Positions 1,252 through 30,873 are shown, counted from the stretch's first letter. The stretch is 35,021 nt of DNA from Thermoplasmata archaeon (GCA_019594025.1 JAFDUB010000003.1:1-35021); one strand, 5' to 3'. Made by a program: numbers and translations. Notes: generated from the sequence alone by a model not told the origin.

Positions 1252-3071
1252 ACTGTCCGGACACCTATAACCTCAATCGATTCGTACTCACCCGTTCCCT
1301 GTGACTCTATATGTATATAAGCGTAAACAGTTAGGAATTCCGATGTATCGTCTTCCTGAGAGCTCATTTCTACCGTAAATGTTACCTGTGATCCTGTAGA
1401 GACGTTAATCTGTAAGATTTCGCCCTCTTGTTCTCCGTAAGTATACATTATATTCCATCCTTCTCTAGATACGTCCTCCGTGCTGATATTGTACACGTCT
1501 TGATGACCTAGATTGAATATATCTATTTCAAAGGTGGCGGTACCGTTCCTTATGGGAACCACCTTTTCACCCCGTACTTCAGCATTGAAAGAATAAATCA
1601 ATCTTACAGATAGCTCAATAAATCTTTTTCTTTCCGTATTTTCAGACACCGCTTTGAGTTCTATGTCTGTTCGAGGTAAAGCGTGCTCTTCGGCTTGAAC
1701 CTCTAACTTGAATTCAGCAGTCTCTGCCGGCTCTAACTCCACAGAGGTGTAATTCAAATCAATAGGTAACCATTCTGTTTCGTTTCGGATGAACATCTGA
1801 ACGGACCATGCAGTAGAATTACTGAGAGTGTAGCTAACGTTGTAGGTATCCGAGGCGGGATCACCGGTATTGGTGAGATTGACCAGGTACTCGGCACTTT
1901 CGTTGACTGAAAGCATCCTTACGGGTTCGTCCTCTATAAGTTCGAATGAAAAATCGTGTGAATATGTAATTTGCTCTACTGGTATGGGATGAAAGCAGCT
2001 TAATAACAGTAAAATTGCGAAGACGCCAACCGCTTTACGTTTAATATCGAGCCCACTCATATCGTTAAGCGGTGGTGGATGTTTCAATCCCACCATAAAG
2101 AATATGAACAGAGCAAAAATCAACCATCCCGGGTACCAGAATATACCAACGATTACTAAGAAGGCGGCGGCGGCATAACTTGCGTATTTTGCCTGTTCAC
2201 CAAAAAGTGCCCTAGCCACGTGTCCTCCGTCAAGCTGCCCGGCGGGTAATAGGTTCAAACCGGTGACCAGAAATCCGATCCACCCCGCAAAGGCGGTTGG
2301 ATGGAGCATAGCATCGCTGGGAAAGGGCATCAGGTAGGAAATAGCCTGCATTATTATAGGGAAGTTGATGGACATAAAGGTGCCTTCTATGTCTGCTGGG
2401 ACAGGGCGTCCCATTGTCGTTCCTAAATATATACCTAAAATAGATATTGGAACGGCGACTATAAAACCACAAATTGGACCGGCGACGCCGAGGTCAAGCA
2501 GTGACTTTTTATCGGGTATAGGTTCTCGAATACTGATGAAAGCACCTATGGTACCGAGAGGAGGAATGAATGGGATGAAGAACGGTAAGGAGGCTTTTAT
2601 ACCGTGATATCTGGCCAGCATATAGTGTCCCATCTCGTGAATACCGAGTATGGTCATCAGGGGTAAGGTAAAGTAAAGTCCTCCGTTGAGTAAGTTGTAA
2701 AGAGTAAAAAATCCTCCGTTCTGCGGATCGTAAGAGGCCCACCACCACATACCGGCGAACAAGGTTGTACAGATGGTGATTAACAGCATCAATACGTTTG
2801 TTTTGATACCTCTATAATTCTGTTCTGGTTGAGCTTTGACGCTGACTATGAATTCACCACGCGCCTCTCGAAGATGAGGGATGTAATTTTGAGGTACTAG
2901 CTCTTTTCTTAAATCGTTAAAGGGTCTTTCAATATCCTGCTCTGGAGATATACGAACGTACAGGTTAACTATATCGTACTCTATTTCAGTTCTGTAGATA
3001 GGAAAGTACTTTCCCACGATCGATTGTAAGTATTCTACCTGGTTTATGTAGTCTTCTGGTCGAGCTACCAT
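1248..3071 (-). CDS. Site-2 (M50) intramembrane metalloprotease with C-terminal beta-rich extracellular extension
   Basis: HEMGH zinc motif, 'AGP', 'NLLPAGQLDGGH', multiple TM segments; about 240 aa acidic C-terminal region. Confidence 0.9.
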   Translation of the reverse strand: MVARPEDYINQVEYLQSIVGKYFPIYRTEIEYDIVNLYVRISPEQDIERPFNDLRKELVPQNYIPHLREARGEFIVSVKAQPEQNYRGIKTNVLMLLITICTTLFAGMWWWASYDPQNGGFFTLYNLLNGGLYFTLPLMTILGIHEMGHYMLARYHGIKASLPFFIPFIPPLGTIGAFISIREPIPDKKSLLDLGVAGPICGFIVAVPISILGIYLGTTMGRPVPADIEGTFMSINFPIIMQAISYLMPFPSDAMLHPTAFAGWIGFLVTGLNLLPAGQLDGGHVARALFGEQAKYASYAAAAFLVIVGIFWYPGWLIFALFIFFMVGLKHPPPLNDMSGLDIKRKAVGVFAILLLLSCFHPIPVEQITYSHDFSFELIEDEPVRMLSVNESAEYLVNLTNTGDPASDTYNVSYTLSNSTAWSVQMFIRNETEWLPIDLNYTSVELEPAETAEFKLEVQAEEHALPRTDIELKAVSENTERKRFIELSVRLIYSFNAEVRGEKVVPIRNGTATFEIDIFNLGHQDVYNISTEDVSREGWNIMYTYGEQEGEILQINVSTGSQVTFTVEMSSQEDDTSEFLTVYAYIHIESQGTGEYESIEVIGVRTV

Positions 3072-17422: not shown

Positions 17423-17551
17423 TTGATTACCCCTTATCTGATAGTTCATGTGGATTATTAGTTTTCCCTAGGTTATAAACACTATAAGGTGATTATAGTA
17501 TTTATACTTTTAGTTCCAAAAAGATTATATCCTGTTATACACATTGTTAAT

Positions 17552-20500
17552 ATGGATGGAAACAGCATGAAAGTTTTTCTTGTGAGCGGGGATATCGAGT
17601 TCCTAAAAAGTGCAAAGGACTTCCTTGAAAAGAAGACGGAGGACTTAAATGTAGATACCTCTGGTTCTCCTGAAAAAGCGTTAAAGAAAATATCACGAGG
17701 AAAGTACGATATCGTGGTTTCAACATACTTCACCGATAAAGAAATGGACTGCTTAGATTTCTTAGTGAAACTAAAGAGAATTAACGATGATATATCAATC
17801 ATAATGATTTCAAGGGAGAAAGAAGAGAAGATTGCAGTAAAAGCTTTGGAACTTGGTGCGGAAAGGAACATTTTCGGTACAGGTTCAAAAGAAATACAGA
17901 TGATCACCCTCTTTAGAGCTATCGAGAATGAGCTTGAGTTGAAGCAGGTTCAGAGGGAACTAAAGGAATCGGAACGCCTCTATAAAGGTATGTATGACTC
18001 CATGCTAGTGCTATCCAAACACGACGATCTAGATTACCTGCTGGCGACGATAGCTTATGAAGTCAAATCCTTACTGGGCGCCACCGATTGTAATATACAT
18101 TTTTACGACGAGGATGAAGAGCTGTTACGTCCGATCTATTCAAACCACCCAAAATATTCTGAAGAAATAATGAAACATCCTATACCCCTGGGCGAAGGTC
18201 TTACTGGTATGGTTGCTGAAGACGGTGTTGGCAGATACTTAAATTATGACGACCCAGATCACGTCTCGATTCACGTTCCCGATACCGATTTGGAGGAGGA
18301 GGAACTGGAATCCATAATGGTGGTACCTCTTTGGGACTACGACAAGCTGTTAGGGGCGATGTCTGTAGGAAAACTAGAGGATACCTTTGACGATTATGAC
18401 ATGAGCAAACTGAATCTTTTTGCAAGGCAGGTAGAGATAGCTTTAATAAAGGCCAGGCATATAAAAGATCTAAAAAAATCTCGTAAAAAACTGTTCCAAG
18501 AAAAGGAACGTATTAAAAAAATCCACGACATCGCAATCAAAATGAAAAGTATACGTTCAGAGGAAGAATTATACCCGATGATAATCGATTCTGTCCGGGA
18601 AATCCTCGATTTCTATGTCTGCAGCCTCGATCTCCTGGAGGACGGAGAATTTGAGGTAAAAGCCACCATGGGAGGGGTAAATAAGAAGGGAGATAGATAT
18701 CCTGTAGAAGGTGTCGCTGGTGAAACCCTAAAAATGAATAGGTCGTATATCATAGATGATGTCCAGGGTTCGAGGATGGCAAAACCCAAACGGAAAAATT
18801 ATCTTTCCGCTATAAGCGTGCCGATAGGTGACTTCGGTGTGTTTCAGGCCCTTTCAAAGAGAAAAAACGACTTCTCTCAAGAGGATTTGGATATTACCGA
18901 ACTACTCATGGCCCACGTCACCCAAACTCTCATAAGACTTCGTAATTTTAGAAAAGTGAAAGAGAGTGAAGAAAAATTTAAAGCTTTGTCCGAGAACAGC
19001 CCCTTCGCAATATTTGTTTATCGGGAAAAATTCCTCTACGTCAACGATGCCAGTGAGGAGTTGACAGGATATTCAAAAATGGAAATGCTCAACAGACACT
19101 TCTGGGAGGTGGTACACCCAGATCATCGAGAGATGGTAAAAGAAAGAGGCTTTGCTCGGCTAAGAGGCGAAGATGTCGCCCCACGTTATGAGTTCAAGAT
19201 AGTAAAAAAAGACGGAACCCCCCGATGGATATATTTCACAGGGAGTAAGATTAACTTTGAAGGCGAAAGTGCGGGACTCGGCACCGCAATCGATATAACC
19301 GAGAGGAAGGAAACCGAGGAAGCTTTGAAGGAAACTAATCGTAAACACATCACATTGATCGAGAACCTTCCCGGTATCGCTTATAGGTGCAAAAACGTTA
19401 AAAACTATACCATGGAATTTTTAAGCGAAGCCTGTACAAAACTGACAGGATACCAGCCTGATGATTTTGTGAACGACAAGAAACTGGCCTTTAAAGATAT
19501 CATACATCCTGAGGATAGAGAGTATGTATGGAGGTCAATCCAAGAGGCTGTAGAAAAAAGAGAATCTTTCGAAATAGAGTATAGAATAATCACAGATGAC
19601 AATGAAGAAAGATGGATATGGGAGCAGGGAAGAGCGGTTGAATTTCCCAAAGATGGGCCGGAGATACTAGAAGGGATAATAACAGATATCACAGAGCAAA
19701 AGATATCGGAGGCATTATTGAAGGAGAGAGAAGAAAAGTACCGAACTATCTTTGAATGCGCAGATGATGCAATATTCGTAATGAAAGATGATATATTCAT
19801 CGACTGTAACGTAAAAACGTTGGACATATTTCAATGTTCTCGTGATGATATTGTGGACGAACCACCATATAAATTTTCCCCGCCAAAACAACCCGATGGT
19901 AGAGATTCCAAAGAAAAGGCCTTGGAAAAGATAAACGCCGCCCTTTCCGGCAAACCTCAGTTATTTGAGTGGGTACACACAACAATGGCGGGTGAACGAT
20001 TTTATGCGGAAGTTAACCTGAATCGGTACAAAATAAACGATGAACTGTACATCATGGCTATAGTTCGTGATATCTCCGAGCAAAAACAAGCCGAAAAAGA
20101 ACTGCGGGAATACAAAGATCAATTGGAAGAGATGGTGGAAGAGAGAACCGCGGCGCTAAGGGATGCCAATATCGAGTTGAAGGCATTTACTCATTCTATG
20201 TCCCATGATCTAAAAGCACCTCTGAGGGCTATACAAGGATTCACTAGAGAATTAATGAAAGAACAAAAGGAGGGGTTGGACCAAGACGGTGTAGAGTGTC
20301 TCAAACGGATACATAAGGCCTCCGTAAGGATGAATACCCTAATCGAGGATCTGCTACGGTATAGTGAGGTATCCAAGGAGAAGAGGGCGCTTACCCAGGT
20401 ATCGCTGAACGAAGTATTAAAAGAAACCATCCAAGATTTTGAAGAAGTTATAGAAGAGAAAAATGCCATAGTTTCCATAGAGGGGAAAATGCCTGTGGTT

Positions 20501-20845
20501 ATGGGAAGGTACTCGACCATGGTCCAGATATTCTCAAACCTGCTATCCAATGCCCTTAAATTCGTCGAGGATGGCCAGTCCCCGGAGATTAAGATTTATG
20601 CCGAAAGTAGTGAAGACGTCGTACGTATATGGGTGCAAGACAAGGGCATAGGTATTCCTGAAGAACGTCACGATGAAATATTCCATCTTTTCGAAAGACT
20701 CCATGGCCGAGAAATTTATCCCGGGACGGGCATAGGTTTATCCATAGTTAATAAAGCGGTTGAGAAGATGGAGGGGAAAGTTGGTGTTGAATCGAAATCG
20801 GGGGAAGGAAGTAAATTCTGGGTCGAACTCGTTCCTTATCGATAA
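17552..20845 (+). CDS. Hybrid sensor histidine kinase: pseudo-REC, GAF, GAF, 3xPAS, HisKA, HATPase
   Basis: H-box 'SHDLKAPLRAI', N-box 'NLLSNALKF', G1 'DKGIGI', 'FERLH', G2 'GTGIGL'; PAS 'VHPDHR', 'IHPEDR', 'DITE'; TATA-like TTATAT about 25 nt before ATG 17552. Confidence 0.92.
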   Translation: MDGNSMKVFLVSGDIEFLKSAKDFLEKKTEDLNVDTSGSPEKALKKISRGKYDIVVSTYFTDKEMDCLDFLVKLKRINDDISIIMISREKEEKIAVKALELGAERNIFGTGSKEIQMITLFRAIENELELKQVQRELKESERLYKGMYDSMLVLSKHDDLDYLLATIAYEVKSLLGATDCNIHFYDEDEELLRPIYSNHPKYSEEIMKHPIPLGEGLTGMVAEDGVGRYLNYDDPDHVSIHVPDTDLEEEELESIMVVPLWDYDKLLGAMSVGKLEDTFDDYDMSKLNLFARQVEIALIKARHIKDLKKSRKKLFQEKERIKKIHDIAIKMKSIRSEEELYPMIIDSVREILDFYVCSLDLLEDGEFEVKATMGGVNKKGDRYPVEGVAGETLKMNRSYIIDDVQGSRMAKPKRKNYLSAISVPIGDFGVFQALSKRKNDFSQEDLDITELLMAHVTQTLIRLRNFRKVKESEEKFKALSENSPFAIFVYREKFLYVNDASEELTGYSKMEMLNRHFWEVVHPDHREMVKERGFARLRGEDVAPRYEFKIVKKDGTPRWIYFTGSKINFEGESAGLGTAIDITERKETEEALKETNRKHITLIENLPGIAYRCKNVKNYTMEFLSEACTKLTGYQPDDFVNDKKLAFKDIIHPEDREYVWRSIQEAVEKRESFEIEYRIITDDNEERWIWEQGRAVEFPKDGPEILEGIITDITEQKISEALLKEREEKYRTIFECADDAIFVMKDDIFIDCNVKTLDIFQCSRDDIVDEPPYKFSPPKQPDGRDSKEKALEKINAALSGKPQLFEWVHTTMAGERFYAEVNLNRYKINDELYIMAIVRDISEQKQAEKELREYKDQLEEMVEERTAALRDANIELKAFTHSMSHDLKAPLRAIQGFTRELMKEQKEGLDQDGVECLKRIHKASVRMNTLIEDLLRYSEVSKEKRALTQVSLNEVLKETIQDFEEVIEEKNAIVSIEGKMPVVMGRYSTMVQIFSNLLSNALKFVEDGQSPEIKIYAESSEDVVRIWVQDKGIGIPEERHDEIFHLFERLHGREIYPGTGIGLSIVNKAVEKMEGKVGVESKSGEGSKFWVELVPYR

Positions 20846-24210: not shown

Positions 24211-25194
24211 TTGGTATCGATTCTACGATTAGGGCATCGGCCTGAAAGAGATAAACGTATGACCACACACGTTGGATTGACCGCTAGATCCTTCGGTGCT
24301 CAAGGTATTTATCTACCTAAAATCGATAACAGGGTGAAGAAAACTCTCGATGACGTTTCAAACAGATTCGGAGGCGCTTTTAAAGTTGAAGAAAGGAAGG
24401 ATTGGAGGGGACTGATAAAAGATTGGGGCGGAGACGTGGTGCACCTAACCATGTATGGTGAAAATATAGATGATTTTTTCAACAAGGTATCTTTAAAAAA
24501 TCCATTGGTCATCGTTGGGGCCGAGAAGGTACCGGGTGAAGTGTACAAGATTGCAGATTACAACGTAGCGGTAGGCAATCAACCCCACTCCGAAGTTGCG
24601 GCATTGGCAGTCTTTTTGGACCGATTAAACGAGCGGATTAGTAGTGATGAGTTTACAGACTCTAAAATCTCGGTCTTACCATCGAACGGTAAGAAAAGGG
24701 TGATAGATTATTCGAATATCCCATCACTGCACGGCAGCTACGTTTTTTGCATTGAAAGGGGCATGGAACAAAATTTGATGGATCATACCATATCCGTGCT
24801 AGAAAGAGTGTTGAAGATTCAGAACAGATTCGGAGGCGATATACAGCTTATAATGGCAGGCGCTATGCTTCATGACATAGGTAGAACGGAAACACACGGG
24901 GTGGACCACGGTGTAGTCGGTGCCGATATCGTTAGAGAGCAGGGATGGGACGAAGAGCTTGCTAAGATGGTGGAAAGGCATGTTGGAGGAGGGATAACTA
25001 AGGAAGAGGCGGTTCAGCAGGGATTGCCGAAGAGAAATATGGTACCGACTAGTTTGGAAGAAAAAATAATATGCCATGCAGACAACACCGCCGGTGGAAT
25101 TGATAGATTCGAAGAGTTGTTAGAGAGGACGAAATCCGCAGGCTACGTAAAAAGTGCAGAGCGCATGAAGGAGTTAGCTGATTTTTTTAAATAA
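24211..25194 (+). CDS. trm56: tRNA (cytidine(56)-2'-O)-methyltransferase Trm56 fused to an HD domain
   Basis: 'LRLGHRPERDKR.TTHV.LTAR', 'HLTMYG', 'VGAEKVP', 'NQPHSEVAALA'; C-terminal 'LHDIG', 'HGVVG', 'ERHVGGG', 'HADN'. Confidence 0.93.
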   Translation: MVSILRLGHRPERDKRMTTHVGLTARSFGAQGIYLPKIDNRVKKTLDDVSNRFGGAFKVEERKDWRGLIKDWGGDVVHLTMYGENIDDFFNKVSLKNPLVIVGAEKVPGEVYKIADYNVAVGNQPHSEVAALAVFLDRLNERISSDEFTDSKISVLPSNGKKRVIDYSNIPSLHGSYVFCIERGMEQNLMDHTISVLERVLKIQNRFGGDIQLIMAGAMLHDIGRTETHGVDHGVVGADIVREQGWDEELAKMVERHVGGGITKEEAVQQGLPKRNMVPTSLEEKIICHADNTAGGIDRFEELLERTKSAGYVKSAERMKELADFFK

Positions 25195-27407: not shown

Positions 27408-28486
27408 AGCCCTGCTACTTCTTCTATGGCATCGGTGAGCTCTTTTACATCCTCTACGGAGTGCTCTCCCATGTGACCGATACGGAAGGTCTTTTCTTTC
27501 AGCTGTTTTCCATATCCATTCGAGAAGAGGATACCGTATTTCTCATCGATCTCCTGACGGAGTTCATTTATGTTCAATCCCTGGGTGTTTTTGATCGTAC
27601 TGACTGTTTGTGACCCGTAACCTGCTTCTGGGAACATCTCGAAGTGTTTTTTAGCCCATTTTTGGGTGTACTCCGCCATATCTTTGTGCCTTTGATCTCT
27701 CGCTTTATGGCCTTCTTCAAGCATGCGTTCCATCTGTTTTCTGTAAGCAAGCATCAATGAGATTGCCGGAGTGGAGTGGGTTTGACCTTTCTTGTTATAG
27801 TAATCTATGTTCCTTTGGAAACCTGCATACCATGAAGCAGAATCTGAGTTTGCCTCTCGCTCGTATGCCTTATCATTTACCACGCAAACAGCTAATCCTG
27901 GAGGCATGGCAAAGGCCTTCTGCACGGAGGTGAATATGACATCGATATTGCTTCCTTCTATGTCTATGTAATCCCCTCCTAATGCGGATATTGCGTCCAC
28001 TATGAATAAAGTGTCCGGGAAGTCTTTCATTACCTCTCCTATCTCCTCTAGTGGATTTCTTATACCGGTGGATGTCTCGTTCATTACACAGGTGAAGGCG
28101 TCGTAGTCTTTTTTCTCCAATGCCTCCCTCACATCTTTCGGTTTCACCGCTTTACCCCATTCATACTCCAGTCTATCGACGTTTTTTCCAAGACGTTCTG
28201 CGATATCCGCCTGCCTTTGAGAAAAACTTCCGCAGGTCGAACAAAGAACTCTGTCGTCGACGCAATTCATTATGGAGCTCTCCATGAAGAGCGTGCCGGA
28301 TGTGGACAGAATTATTACGTCGTTCTCAGTACCGAGAAACTTTTTAGTGTCCTCGGTCATAGTAGTGAACAACTCAGTCATCGTTGGAGAACGGTGACCG
28401 AACATCCATGCTTCCATTTCATCTATTATTTCCTTCTTGACCTCAGTGGGTCCCGGGATGAATAATTTCGTGTGTTTATCTTTCAC
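27404..28486 (-). CDS. Class V PLP aminotransferase (serine-pyruvate/phosphoserine aminotransferase-like)
   Basis: 'LFIPGPT', 'GHRS', 'NETSTG', 'VDAIS', 'SVQKAFAMPPG' (PLP Lys intact), 'FRIGHMG'; GTG 28486 after GGTGG RBS (ORF track start 28507). Confidence 0.88.
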   Translation of the reverse strand: MKDKHTKLFIPGPTEVKKEIIDEMEAWMFGHRSPTMTELFTTMTEDTKKFLGTENDVIILSTSGTLFMESSIMNCVDDRVLCSTCGSFSQRQADIAERLGKNVDRLEYEWGKAVKPKDVREALEKKDYDAFTCVMNETSTGIRNPLEEIGEVMKDFPDTLFIVDAISALGGDYIDIEGSNIDVIFTSVQKAFAMPPGLAVCVVNDKAYEREANSDSASWYAGFQRNIDYYNKKGQTHSTPAISLMLAYRKQMERMLEEGHKARDQRHKDMAEYTQKWAKKHFEMFPEAGYGSQTVSTIKNTQGLNINELRQEIDEKYGILFSNGYGKQLKEKTFRIGHMGEHSVEDVKELTDAIEEVAGL

Positions 28487-28600
28487 ATACACCACCTGAT
28501 TCGGCATACAAAGATAATGTATATAATGGTTGTGTTTTTTCGAATCAAGTCCAACACATTTTTATATCTCACATACCTCCCTTTGTATTGGTGGAAACCC

Positions 28601-29383
28601 ATAAGCGAAATAACTAAAACAATATCTGATACCGCCTATAAAGCATACGAAAGAAAGCTGTTTAGGGAAATCAAATCAAAGGGAATCATCCCTACACATA
28701 TAGCAGTGATAATGGACGGTAACAGGCGGTTCGCTAAACAGTTGGGCTTGGACGAGAATATGGGCCACATCAAAGGGAAAGATAAGTTGGAAGAAATGCT
28801 GGGGTGGTGCCTCGAACTGGATATAAAGATACTAACTGTCTATGCCTTTTCTACCGAAAATATATCTCGTGATTCTGAGCAAGTGGAAAAACTGATGGAC
28901 CTTTTTGAAGATAACTTTAGAAAGGCGGCTGAAGACGAAAGAGTTCATAAAAATCGTGTAAAAATAAAAGCTATAGGCGCTCTTGAAAAATTGCCCGAGA
29001 GAGTGAAAGAGTCTATCAGGTATGCGGAGGAGAAAACCAAAGATTACAGCGATTATCACTTCAATATCGCGGTCGCATACGGTGGTCGAGAAGAACTACT
29101 CCAAGCTATCCAGAGGGTAGCGAAAGATGTTAAAAAAGGAGTTATCGAAGTTGAAGACATAAACGAAAAAACGGTGGCGGAAAGGCTCTACACCTCGGAC
29201 CTTCCCGATCCGGACTTGATACTGCGTACCAGCGGTGAGGAAAGGATTTCAAATTTTCTCATATGGCAGTTGGCGTACTCCGAGCTTTACTTCACCGACG
29301 TGTACTGGCCCGGCTTCAGAAAGATTGATTTTTTGAGAGCTATAAGGTCTTATCAGAGCAGACAAAGGAGGTGGGGTGAATGA
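28601..29383 (+). CDS. uppS: cis-prenyltransferase (polyprenyl diphosphate synthase)
   Basis: 'HIAVIMDGNRR', 'YAFSTEN', 'YGGR.E', 'PDLILRTSGE.RISNF', 'R.RRWG'; start uncertain (ATA 28601 or TTG 28583). Confidence 0.93.
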   Translation: MSEITKTISDTAYKAYERKLFREIKSKGIIPTHIAVIMDGNRRFAKQLGLDENMGHIKGKDKLEEMLGWCLELDIKILTVYAFSTENISRDSEQVEKLMDLFEDNFRKAAEDERVHKNRVKIKAIGALEKLPERVKESIRYAEEKTKDYSDYHFNIAVAYGGREELLQAIQRVAKDVKKGVIEVEDINEKTVAERLYTSDLPDPDLILRTSGEERISNFLIWQLAYSELYFTDVYWPGFRKIDFLRAIRSYQSRQRRWGE

Positions 29384-29544: not shown

Positions 29545-29660
29545 GAGAGTTGAGTATCCCGTTGACACTTTTTCATAGTCCAAGTTATGTACGATATAAT
29601 CTAGCGGGTGTTACCAAAAATCCTTATGGATTTTTCCCTACCACGTTCAAACAAGTTGAA

Positions 29661-29735
29661 CGGGCGTGAGGGGATTCGAACCCCCGATTTACAGCTTAGG
29701 AGGCTGTCGCCATATCCAGACTTGGCCACACGCCC
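29661..29735 (-). tRNA. tRNA-Arg(CCT)
   Basis: GGGCGTG/CACGCCC acceptor stem, ACAGC-CTCCTAA-GCTGT anticodon arm, GTTCGAATC T-loop; no encoded CCA. Confidence 0.95.
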
Positions 29736-29789
29736 AGATTGTTCAGTGTCGGTCTAGTCTGGTTAAAGGAGGAATCCGTTATTCCTGCG

Positions 29790-29819
29790 CATATCCAGAC
29801 TTGGCCACACGCCCAGATT
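29790..29819 (-). repeat. Exact 30-bp copy of the tRNA-Arg 5' end plus 5 nt of leader
   Basis: catatccagacttggccacacgcccagatt at 29711-29740 and 29790-29819. Confidence 0.9.
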
Positions 29820-29843
29820 CAAATGGGCGAAAAATGATGTTAG

Positions 29844-29917
29844 TGGGCCCGACCGGATTTGAACCGGCGACCATCTGGTTATGAGCCAGACGCTCCACCT
29901 GACTAAGCTACGGGCCC
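29844..29917 (-). tRNA. tRNA with CAT anticodon, most likely tRNA-Ile2 (agmatidine type) rather than Met
   Basis: GGGCCCG/CGGGCCC acceptor (GGGCCC start typical of archaeal Ile tRNAs), TCTGG-CTCATAA-CCAGA, A73; lacks initiator A1-U72 and the three G-C anticodon pairs. Confidence 0.88.
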
Positions 29918-29946
29918 ATTATGCCCGTGGTATTATCTAGGTATTG

Positions 29947-29954
29947 TATATAAG
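29947..29954 (-). promoter_or_regulatory. TATA box for tRNA(CAT)
   Basis: CTTATATA on the minus strand about 30 nt upstream of the tRNA 5' end. Confidence 0.6.
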
Positions 29955-29959
29955 GTTGA

Positions 29960-30054
29960 TGGGCCGAGGCGGAATTGAACCGCCGATCTTCGCCTTTCTG
30001 ACCGTATTTACTACGGTTGTAAGGGCGACGTCATGACCCCTAGACCACCGGCCC
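29960..30054 (-). tRNA. tRNA-Val(TAC) with a 22-nt intron at position 37/38 (intron 29996-30017)
   Basis: GGGCCGG/TCGGCCC acceptor; TCGCC-CTTACA|ACCGTAGTAAATACGGTCAGAA|A-GGCGA; 73 nt after intron removal; bulge-helix-bulge geometry. Confidence 0.92.
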
Positions 30055-30111
30055 ATGAAGGAGTGCAGCGTGTGAATGGGCAGGGGTGAGTTGGAAGCTT
30101 TGCTTCCGATG

Positions 30112-30126
30112 GACCACCGGCCCATG
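30112..30126 (-). repeat. Exact 15-bp copy of the tRNA-Val 5' end plus 3 nt of leader
   Basis: gaccaccggcccatg at 30043-30057 and 30112-30126. Confidence 0.85.
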
Positions 30127-30312
30127 GGAGAATAGTTACAGGCGAATAGGCGTATGTAAGTATTCAAGTATGGTGACCTTACTTTCGTGTAAGATAACAC
30201 CTGAGCGGAAATCGTCAGTGTTATGTTTTATATTTAATCCTTTTGACATGTCCGTGCACTTCTCTACAAAAAATAATTATAGGTGTCCCTGATACAGACT
30301 TGGTGCTTTTAA

Positions 30313-30873
30313 ATGATAGAGATTCGGTTTCACGGAAGAGGTGGACAAGGTGCGGTAACAGCGTCCGAGTTCCTGGCCCGGGCTGCGTTTTTGGAAGGGA
30401 ACGACGTCCAGTCGTTTCCAATGTATGGAGTAGAAAGAAGAGGTGCCCCGGTGACCGCCTTCACTAGGATCGATAGTAAAGCGGTTAGGAACAAGGCACA
30501 GATCCACGAGCCAGACATAGTTATCGTTATGGACATGGCTCTACTGGACGCTGTGGATGTTACTGCAGGGCTCAAGCCAGACGGAAAAGTGATCCTCAAC
30601 ACGGAGAAGGCTCCGGATGAAATTGATCTTGGAGTCGATAATCCGATATACACAGTGGATGCCAGCAGTATTGCGGTAGAGCATAGATTGGGTTCTAAGG
30701 TGGCCCCCATCGTGAACACTGCCATACTCGGCGCCATCACAAGGGCTACGGGGATAGTAGATATAGAAACGCTGGTGGATGTTGTACGCAACAACGCACC
30801 GGCAAAAAAAGAAGAGAACGCAAAAGCCACCAAACAAGCTTATAATGAGGTAAGAGGTGAAGACCTTGAGTGA
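30313..30873 (+). CDS. porG: Pyruvate/2-ketoisovalerate:ferredoxin oxidoreductase gamma subunit
   Basis: '[16 protein letters not shown]', '[10 protein letters not shown]', 'NTAILGA'. Confidence 0.93.

Follow-up and report, generated by a model that had tools for sequence, protein, structure and literature searches.

In a stretch of 35,021 nucleotides (nt) from a Thermoplasmata archaeon (GCA_019594025.1 JAFDUB010000003.1:1-35021), in the following called the window, two genes of one transfer RNA (tRNA) cluster, tRNA-Arg and tRNA-Val, are each preceded by an additional exact copy of their own start. These direct repeats are certainly real and far beyond chance. Between the two copies lies a filler of about 50 nt with a central hairpin and an imperfect inverted copy of the tRNA 5′ part. 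The two units are probably non-regulatory scars of some origin; the full reading that we favour, namely that they are young and were made by fold-back or template-switching DNA synthesis in replication or repair, is put forward tentatively. All positions refer to the numbering of the whole window, and both units and all three tRNAs of the cluster read on the minus strand. The genes and the repeats are the following:

29661-29735, minus strand: tRNA-Arg(CCT), complete (Rfam RF00005, 66 bits; ARAGORN 29660-29736)
29711-29740, minus strand: gene-proximal copy of the Arg repeat, covering 5 nt of the leader and tRNA nt 1-25 (exact direct repeat over 30 nt, spacing 79)
29790-29819, minus strand: upstream partial copy of the Arg repeat, the Arg decoy (30/30 nt identical to 29711-29740)
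29844-29917, minus strand: tRNA-Met(CAT), without duplication, the internal control (ARAGORN and Rfam)
29960-30054, minus strand: tRNA-Val(TAC), complete (Rfam, 53.2 bits, 23 nt inserted behind the anticodon; missed by the default run of ARAGORN)
30043-30057, minus strand: gene-proximal copy of the Val repeat, covering 3 nt of the leader and tRNA nt 1-12 (exact direct repeat over 15 nt, spacing 69)
30112-30126, minus strand: upstream partial copy of the Val repeat, the Val decoy and presumed ancestral gene start (15/15 nt identical to 30043-30057)

A preliminary description of this DNA had claimed an exact copy of 30 base pairs (bp) with a period of 79 for Arg and one of 15 bp with a period of 69 for Val. 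Both were confirmed, and all coordinates given there for the Arg and Val features were borne out on the minus strand. Taken together, the direct copies are identical at 45/45 nt. Besides the Arg and Val pairs, the whole window has no direct repeat of at least 15 nt with its copies within 200 nt of each other, and 200 dinucleotide shuffles gave a mean of 0.005 such repeats per window and a maximum of 1. Since non-tRNA leader bases are included in both repeats, the extra copies were made from their own locus and not from another tRNA gene. For an estimate of the background rate, ARAGORN delivered 17 predictions for the window and 80 fetched loci. Outside the two cases of the cluster, 0/14 had an upstream copy of at least 11 nt and one had a copy of 10 nt; this control is weak, because several of the predictions carry implausible 'introns' of kilobase length.

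If the sequence were an artefact of assembly or amplification, the repeats and palindromes would be absent from the DNA of the organism. The window probably belongs to an uncultured Thermoplasmata-like genome, and the best matches to its uppS gene are metagenome-assembled genomes, which is in favour of this explanation. However, the features are located mid-window between well-formed genes, the window is free of N, and a de Bruijn path leading from the repeat into the filler requires real junction reads. In addition, the pattern occurs twice, separately and in different sequences, and is anchored precisely at a tRNA start both times. An artefact has only a slim chance of being the cause.

The fillers can be divided into the following parts:

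29741-29789, minus strand: Arg filler, 49 nt, with a guanine plus cytosine (GC) content of 49% (sequence and fold)
29770-29786, minus strand: central hairpin of the Arg filler, 6-bp stem and 5-nt loop (sequence and fold)
29746-29766, minus strand: inverted imperfect copy of the tRNA 5′ part in the Arg filler (similarity, 16/20 columns)
29761-29767, minus strand: TTTAACC box of the Arg filler (sequence)
29741-29745, minus strand: tail of the Arg filler (sequence)
30058-30111, minus strand: Val filler, 54 nt, 56% GC and strongly C-rich (sequence and fold)
30093-30107, minus strand: central hairpin of the Val filler (sequence and fold)
30076-30092, minus strand: inverted imperfect copy in the Val filler (similarity, 11/13 columns)
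30058-30075, minus strand: tail of the Val filler (sequence)

In both units the order is direct copy, central hairpin, inverted copy and direct copy, with perfect 6-bp stems at both centres, and the two hairpins are present as they had been described. The degenerate inverted copies, too, were found at the positions assigned to them, and they are moderately non-random (p = 0.01 and 0.08). In Smith-Waterman alignments, the Arg repeat agreed with the reverse complement of its filler in 16/20 columns (3 mismatches and 1 gap), which 1.05% of 2000 shuffles reached (p = 0.0105), and the Val repeat in 11/13 columns, as good as 7.55% of 2000 shuffles (p = 0.0755). They are, however, no feature separate from the hairpin: the upstream copy forms the proximal arm, the hairpin the centre and the antisense copy the distal arm of one long imperfect palindrome with folding energies of -23.2 (Arg) and -24.6 kcal/mol (Val). 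The whole leaders fold with z-scores of -2.25 (Arg) and -3.49 (Val), re-estimated with 500 shuffles as -2.07 and -3.30. A z-score of -2.25 is reached by 3.6% and one of -3.49 by 0.8% of 250 random 69- or 79-nt pieces of the window, and these tails are somewhat larger for the re-estimated values. The 75 nt upstream of tRNA-Met (z = -1.08) have nothing comparable to the Arg and Val leaders. As to the earlier statement that the two sequences are unrelated and the grammar is the same, the fillers are indeed without detectable relatedness to each other (p = 0.43 and 0.61) and the order is common to both, but the shared palindromic grammar, although real, is only moderately supported.

No second copy of either filler was detected in the window, which comprises the 35 kb of the source genome that were searched, or in the 80 fetched loci. 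With no second copy in these 35 kb and 80 loci and with fillers unrelated to each other, a miniature inverted-repeat transposable element was rejected. Matches of the fillers to phage and plasmid collections, which hold few archaeal elements, were at chance level only (all E at least 3). A template for the filler in nearby DNA or elsewhere in the tRNA was rejected as well, as no match rose above chance, and so was a diverged tandem duplication, for which the sequence 5′ of the decoys is unlike the fillers (Val, p = 0.59; Arg, an 8-nt match with p = 0.03). Inspection by eye gave nothing convincing for tRNA fragments on the plus strand of the fillers or for a C/D-box RNA nature of the leaders. 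In the Rfam search only the three tRNAs passed the gathering thresholds, and nothing credible appeared on the leaders at E up to 10. Two spurious open reading frames (ORFs) of 87 and 72 amino acids (aa) which span the leaders yielded no candidate in the protein collection. An 8-mer (TAACCAGA) is found in direct orientation both in the Arg filler (29757-29764) and in the anticodon arm of tRNA-Met (about 29874-29881); 3% of shuffles are as good and it is probably due to chance.

Which of the two copies marks the old gene start can be considered from the putative promoter elements:

29946-29954, minus strand: TATA-like 9-mer CTTATATAC, 28 nt before nt 1 of tRNA-Met (CTTAYATAC match)
30152-30160, minus strand: TATA-like 9-mer CTTACATAC, 28 nt before the Val decoy's nt 1, 97 nt before that of the real tRNA-Val (CTTAYATAC match)
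1313-1321, minus strand: third CTTAYATAC match, inside the 3′ end of an M50 peptidase ORF (exact match)
29830-29834, minus strand: T5 tract between tRNA-Met and the Arg upstream copy, a possible archaeal terminator (sequence)

CTTAYATAC occurs exactly three times in the window, with about 0.5 matches expected on both strands (a 9-mer with one two-fold position; hand arithmetic), and judged by its placement it is probably the local promoter box of tRNA genes. Sequence inspection found no TATA-like box in the Val filler. Since the 9-mer precedes the Val decoy by 28 nt, as it precedes tRNA-Met, and the filler has no such box, the decoy would mark the ancestral start of the Val gene. Consequently, the 69-bp insertion would be placed in the gene's first 12 nt, and decoy and filler would be transcribed. 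For Arg the situation is different. No more than 29 nt separate nt 1 of the decoy tRNA from the 3′ end of tRNA-Met, and between them is the T5 tract, a possible terminator given that archaeal transcription terminates at oligo-T tracts. An ancestral Arg gene at the decoy position would need co-transcription and is uncertain. Alternatively, the TTTAACC box of the Arg filler, 26-32 nt before the real tRNA-Arg, may be the promoter, and the decoy would then not be transcribed. The preliminary description had named transcription starting at this box, downstream of the leader, as an observation that would speak against its proposal. This may apply to Arg; it does not hold for Val, whose filler is free of a TATA-like box and whose promoter is on the upstream side of the partial copy. 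A sigma-70 promoter scan was uninformative, the host being archaeal.

According to the reading that we favour, each unit would be an insertion of 69 or 79 bp in the first part of a tRNA gene, by which the first 12 or 25 nt together with 3 or 5 leader nt were duplicated. The promoter-proximal copy would be a dead fragment, followed by the partly complementary filler of ~50 nt and then by the intact tRNA. Transcription would proceed from the old promoter upstream of the fragment, a step with good support in Val and an uncertain one in Arg. Fragment and filler would fold first into the long imperfect hairpin, and this leader hairpin would keep the acceptor stem free for the real 5′ strand, with which the fragment would otherwise compete. 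Ribonuclease P (RNase P), which strips any 5′ leader from a folded pre-tRNA, would finally cleave at the real nt 1, so that the whole leader is discarded. As origin we propose a small direct-inverted-direct duplication which might arise by fold-back or template switching at heavily transcribed, structure-prone gene starts. Survivorship may have contributed: among insertions that leave a decoy, perhaps only those with a filler pairing to the decoy were tolerated. Exact direct repeats of 15-30 nt at a distance of 69-79 bp are easily lost by slippage deletion, which would restore the normal gene. Zero differences in 45 nt between repeats so close and so easily deleted suggest that the scars are young. 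The preliminary description had also listed the footprint of a target-duplicating element and a template-switch duplication as options. Both are viable and together make up the preferred class, and the position of the Val promoter adds to this, as it places the unit inside the gene. Between the two, we slightly favour a template-switch origin, from which the direct-inverted-direct order, a short perfect inverted repeat at the point of turning and a size of tens of nt follow naturally.

Several points weigh against this proposal. The order and the inverted repeat at the junction are those of a template switch, but one fold-back event should yield equally exact arms, whereas the inverted copies agree in 16/20 and 11/13 columns and the direct copies at 45/45 nt. 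The central hairpins and the tails are not traceable to any nearby template. A part of the antisense copy may be nothing else than C-rich composition: the GC content of the fillers is 49% (Arg) and 56% (Val) compared to 37% in the flanking intergenic DNA, so composition carries part of the signal of the inverted copies. In line with this, the energy of the RNA duplex between repeat and filler was not significant when compared with shuffled filler (22% as good for Arg, 12% for Val), while among adjacent genomic segments only 5.7% (Arg) and 0.33% (Val) were as good. The old Arg arrangement would have had no room for a promoter of its own, 29 nt after tRNA-Met and with the T5 tract in between. 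In an equilibrium model, the mean probability of pairing with the acceptor stem was 0.97 for the decoy versus 0.012 for the real 5′ strand in Arg, and 0.74 versus 0.13 in Val. This model suggests that the decoy is a liability and that the insertion may be harmful rather than neutral; it also suggests that correct maturation rests on the leader hairpin forming first during transcription, which is an assumed order. Finally, a hotspot or an active agent is required for two young events to have happened within 400 bp.

A further idea would be an active process in this lineage, driven by a minimal hairpin element or by a recombinase for folded single strands. The hairpin would mimic the first 12-25 bp of a tRNA gene, insert there and duplicate the target, and the leaders may persist because the hairpin neutralises the decoy or even tunes precursor folding. 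We give this idea a small chance; if it were true, many tRNA genes here and in relatives would carry units matched to their own tRNA.

The folding results bear directly on the leader switch which had been suggested earlier, in which the antisense segment pairs either with the decoy or with the real tRNA 5′ strand. In its broader form, decoy and antisense arm would be a selected device which sets two precursor folds and thereby tunes folding, RNase P access or stability of both tRNAs. When both conformations were folded, the alternative pairings were indeed near-isoenergetic: the antisense arm pairs at -23.2 kcal/mol with either the upstream copy or the real 5′ end in Arg, and at -24.6 with the former and -22.2 with the latter in Val. 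However, near-equal energies follow automatically from the duplication, because the two copies are identical. The acceptor stem can be closed by either 5′ copy as well, with ensemble energies of -61.4 (Arg) and -68.5 (Val) if the real strand is enforced and of -64.1 and -69.5 if the decoy is enforced. The minimum-energy fold of the full Val precursor consists of the leader hairpin and the correct cloverleaf, which is not so for the full Arg precursor. Selection would account for the persistence of deletion-prone exact repeats, for an exact decoy beside an imperfect antisense arm and for one layout in unrelated sequences, and the leaders do fold unusually well. On the other hand, there is no Rfam family, ligand, trigger, sensor or other regulatory sign for these leaders, tRNA-Met in the same cluster lacks the layout, and an equilibrium that favours the wrong acceptor pairing would, as modelled, be a cost rather than a design. 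While the near-equal pairing thus stands, regulation does not follow from it: the regulatory interpretation is unsupported, the scar interpretations are plausible, and a selected device appears rather improbable to us.

The main rival to a template-switch origin is a mobile element with the 5′ half of tRNAs as its target. Integrating elements that use this part as attachment (att) site would explain the repeat as the block of att identity and the upstream copy as the displaced tRNA fragment, and the filler of 49-54 nt would be a deleted-down remnant or a tiny non-autonomous derivative. A partial tRNA gene beside a complete one is a classic trace of integration (bioRxiv 10.1101/2022.07.05.498093). 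The pTN3-like integrases of Euryarchaeota use the 5′ half of tRNA genes and part the tRNA from its promoter, with 41 bp shared by attP and attB, according to PMC8371274 and PMC5495485; archaeal attB sites can reach beyond the tRNA, as the former source also indicates (PMC8371274). Both repeats are part of a tRNA with one copy inside the complete gene (30 nt with nt 1-25 and 15 nt with nt 1-12), which is this known signature, and integration would also account for repeats that start just outside nt 1, for their unequal lengths and for hits on side-by-side tRNA genes. The Arg decoy fits further. Its continuation (29770-29789, minus strand) consists of 3 nt and then a 5-bp stem with a 7-nt loop in the exact anticodon-arm register of the real tRNA, with ACG at the anticodon and A, not U, at position 33. 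Together with the TTTAACC box, this stem-loop is compatible with the remainder of a tRNA-like attP and an element-borne promoter. Nothing like this follows the Val decoy, which is not tRNA-like beyond nt 12. Element DNA between the repeats is restricted to 49 and 54 nt, whereas the known partial-tRNA cases enclose 9-23 kb with an integrase (bioRxiv 10.1101/2022.07.05.498093). Of the 67 ORFs of at least 80 aa in the window, the 35 long non-shadow ones were scanned and no integrase, transposase, Cas or other mobile-element domain was found in them, and the fillers have no match in the phage and plasmid collections, poor in archaeal elements as these are. Two independent deletions down to about 50 bp, each sparing both att copies, are unlikely, and the palindrome is not predicted by integration. 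All in all, we regard this origin as unlikely, yet as the alternative to be taken most seriously.

Insertion by a Cas1-family integrase, either a casposase or an off-target adaptation complex of a CRISPR system, would produce long, ruler-set target duplications downstream of a promoter-containing 'leader'. Spontaneous off-target integration of CRISPR spacers has reportedly been observed, and the repeat-insert-repeat dimension of 30 plus 49 nt is within the size range of CRISPR units. Casposases make duplications of 14-15 bp beside tRNA genes and of 35 nt in other casposons, and solo terminal repeats of casposons occur, but known casposon targets are tRNA 3′ ends and not 5′ ends (PMC5137440, PMC4779613). 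Excision of the casposon of M. mazei left no footprint, according to PMC10359463. A single ruler should not yield both 15 and 30 nt, and the two ends of a filler do not form inverted repeats, in addition to the lack of relatedness between the two fillers. Within the 35 kb of the window there are neither cas genes nor a CRISPR-like array. The chance of a Cas1-type origin is very slight.

Finally, the promoter-proximal copy could be the true 5′ exon of a tRNA with a non-canonical intron, from which the splicing endonuclease removes the filler and the second copy. The archaeal bulge-helix-bulge motif is a 4-bp helix between two 3-nt bulges (PMC4090602). In Val, two palindromic CCGG copies can form such a motif (4-bp outer helix, 3-nt bulge, 4-bp central helix, 3-nt bulge and 5-bp outer helix); the cuts are in register at 9/10, and splicing would restore a normal tRNA. 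This conformer is, however, about 18 kcal/mol above the minimum-energy fold (-48.8 versus -66.7; 5′ part alone -17.5 versus -32.0). No in-register motif was obtained for Arg (0/2 hits), and chance hits are many in GC-rich tRNA sequence, with 10 in 191 nt for Val. Moreover, splicing is unnecessary, as the downstream copy already is a complete tRNA. Splicing of this kind is hardly credible. The tRNA-Val also contains a canonical intron:

29996-30017, minus strand: canonical intron of tRNA-Val, 22 nt at 37/38 (limits from reading of the Rfam alignment)

A hand parse of this intron shows one U-C mismatch in the central helix of its bulge-helix-bulge motif. The strict scan missed this intron, so that its sensitivity is limited.

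The tRNA cluster (Val, Met and Arg, minus strand) is situated between uppS, which ends at 29383, and the gene for the gamma subunit of an oxidoreductase, which starts at 30313; the distance from uppS to tRNA-Arg is 277 bp. On the 3′ side of tRNA-Arg, an AT-rich hairpin (aaaaatcc...ggattttt) followed by T5 at 29600-29650 (minus strand) is the likely terminator of the cluster. The window has an archaeal housekeeping content, with uppS, eIF-1A, aTrm56, a class I tRNA synthetase, subunits of pyruvate:ferredoxin oxidoreductase and a PAS/GAF histidine kinase. A protein search found the best uppS matches, with identities up to 91%, in metagenome-assembled Thermoplasmata/Thermoplasmatota archaea; uppS proteins of 91%, 85% and 82% identity are present in public data. 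The uppS ORF (28472-29383, plus strand) has 303 aa from a GTG start, which is probably set too far upstream, as the homologues have 223-286 aa and cover 73-94%. An alignment scan of genome contigs with uppS brought up no orthologous locus, with 0/12 archaeal uppS loci having an adjacent tRNA among the matches listed, which were mostly distant or bacterial and of which the best archaeal locus is 68% identical. Among these listed matches, the best contig (68%) is JBKHKA010000001.1, which is titled Candidatus Aenigmatarchaeota, while the protein search puts the window among Thermoplasmata; this may be an issue of labelling or binning. Two other ORFs of the window combine several domains. An ORF of 327 aa (24211-25194, plus strand) fuses an aTrm56 tRNA ribose 2′-O-methyltransferase domain (residues 53-164) to an HD phosphohydrolase domain (191-294), and a hybrid sensor kinase of 1118 aa (17489-20845, plus strand) combines receiver, GAF, several PAS, HisKA and HATPase domains.

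As a rule, truncated tRNA copies are taken for the borders of integrated viruses or plasmids, and here the same signature is found with almost no insert. If the units are mutational scars, tRNA gene starts are able to absorb insertions, because RNase P cleans the transcript, and annotators should be cautious in inferring prophage borders from such repeats. If the pattern recurs throughout the genome, it would point to an unknown agent which targets tRNA 5′ ends, and it would provide a natural test of a precursor with two competing 5′ acceptor strands. A search of the literature, which was not exhaustive, found no description of such short tRNA 5′ duplications with palindromic filler.

Compared to known systems, archaeal non-canonical tRNA introns share with the units an extra sequence in the 5′ part of the tRNA transcript and, for Val, a formally correct motif, but this motif is energetically disfavoured and Arg has none. 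Target duplications of the Cas1 family resemble them as long duplications (14-15, up to 35 nt) which flank an insert by tRNA genes downstream of a leader; they differ by their position at the tRNA 3′ end, their terminal inverted repeats and a fixed length per enzyme, none of which is seen here. Folded single-strand attachment sites, such as integron attC and the attP of filamentous phages used with Xer, have an imperfect hairpin with one arm that mimics the target, and the order after integration is target-like copy, loop, imperfect inverted copy, body and target-like copy. This is an analogy only: the 'body' would be just 5-18 nt here, and the known systems have targets other than tRNA genes. 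To our knowledge, no recombinase is known for such hairpin-tRNA units. Template-switch duplications agree in the copy order direct, inverted, direct and in the short perfect inverted repeat at the turn-around. In bacteria, tandem-inversion duplications are said to follow this order at kilobase scale. The known cases comprise kilobases and have exact arms when new, whereas the units described here measure tens of nt, with an inverted arm that is matched to about 80-85% and a centre which is not locally derived. A further close counterpart is the partial tRNA gene left by integrating elements, especially by the pTN3-like integrases of Thermococcales that target the 5′ half; the features in common are an exact repeat of a tRNA part, a truncated copy upstream of the complete gene, a gene displaced from its promoter and a repeat reaching slightly outside the tRNA; in contrast to the 9-23 kb enclosed there, the units in the window enclose 49-54 nt, with no element genes in the window and with a filler that is palindromic with the fragment. 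The units are tRNA gene fragments of a known kind, and their peculiarity is that almost nothing lies between the copies, that the filler is palindromic and that two of three clustered tRNA genes are affected.

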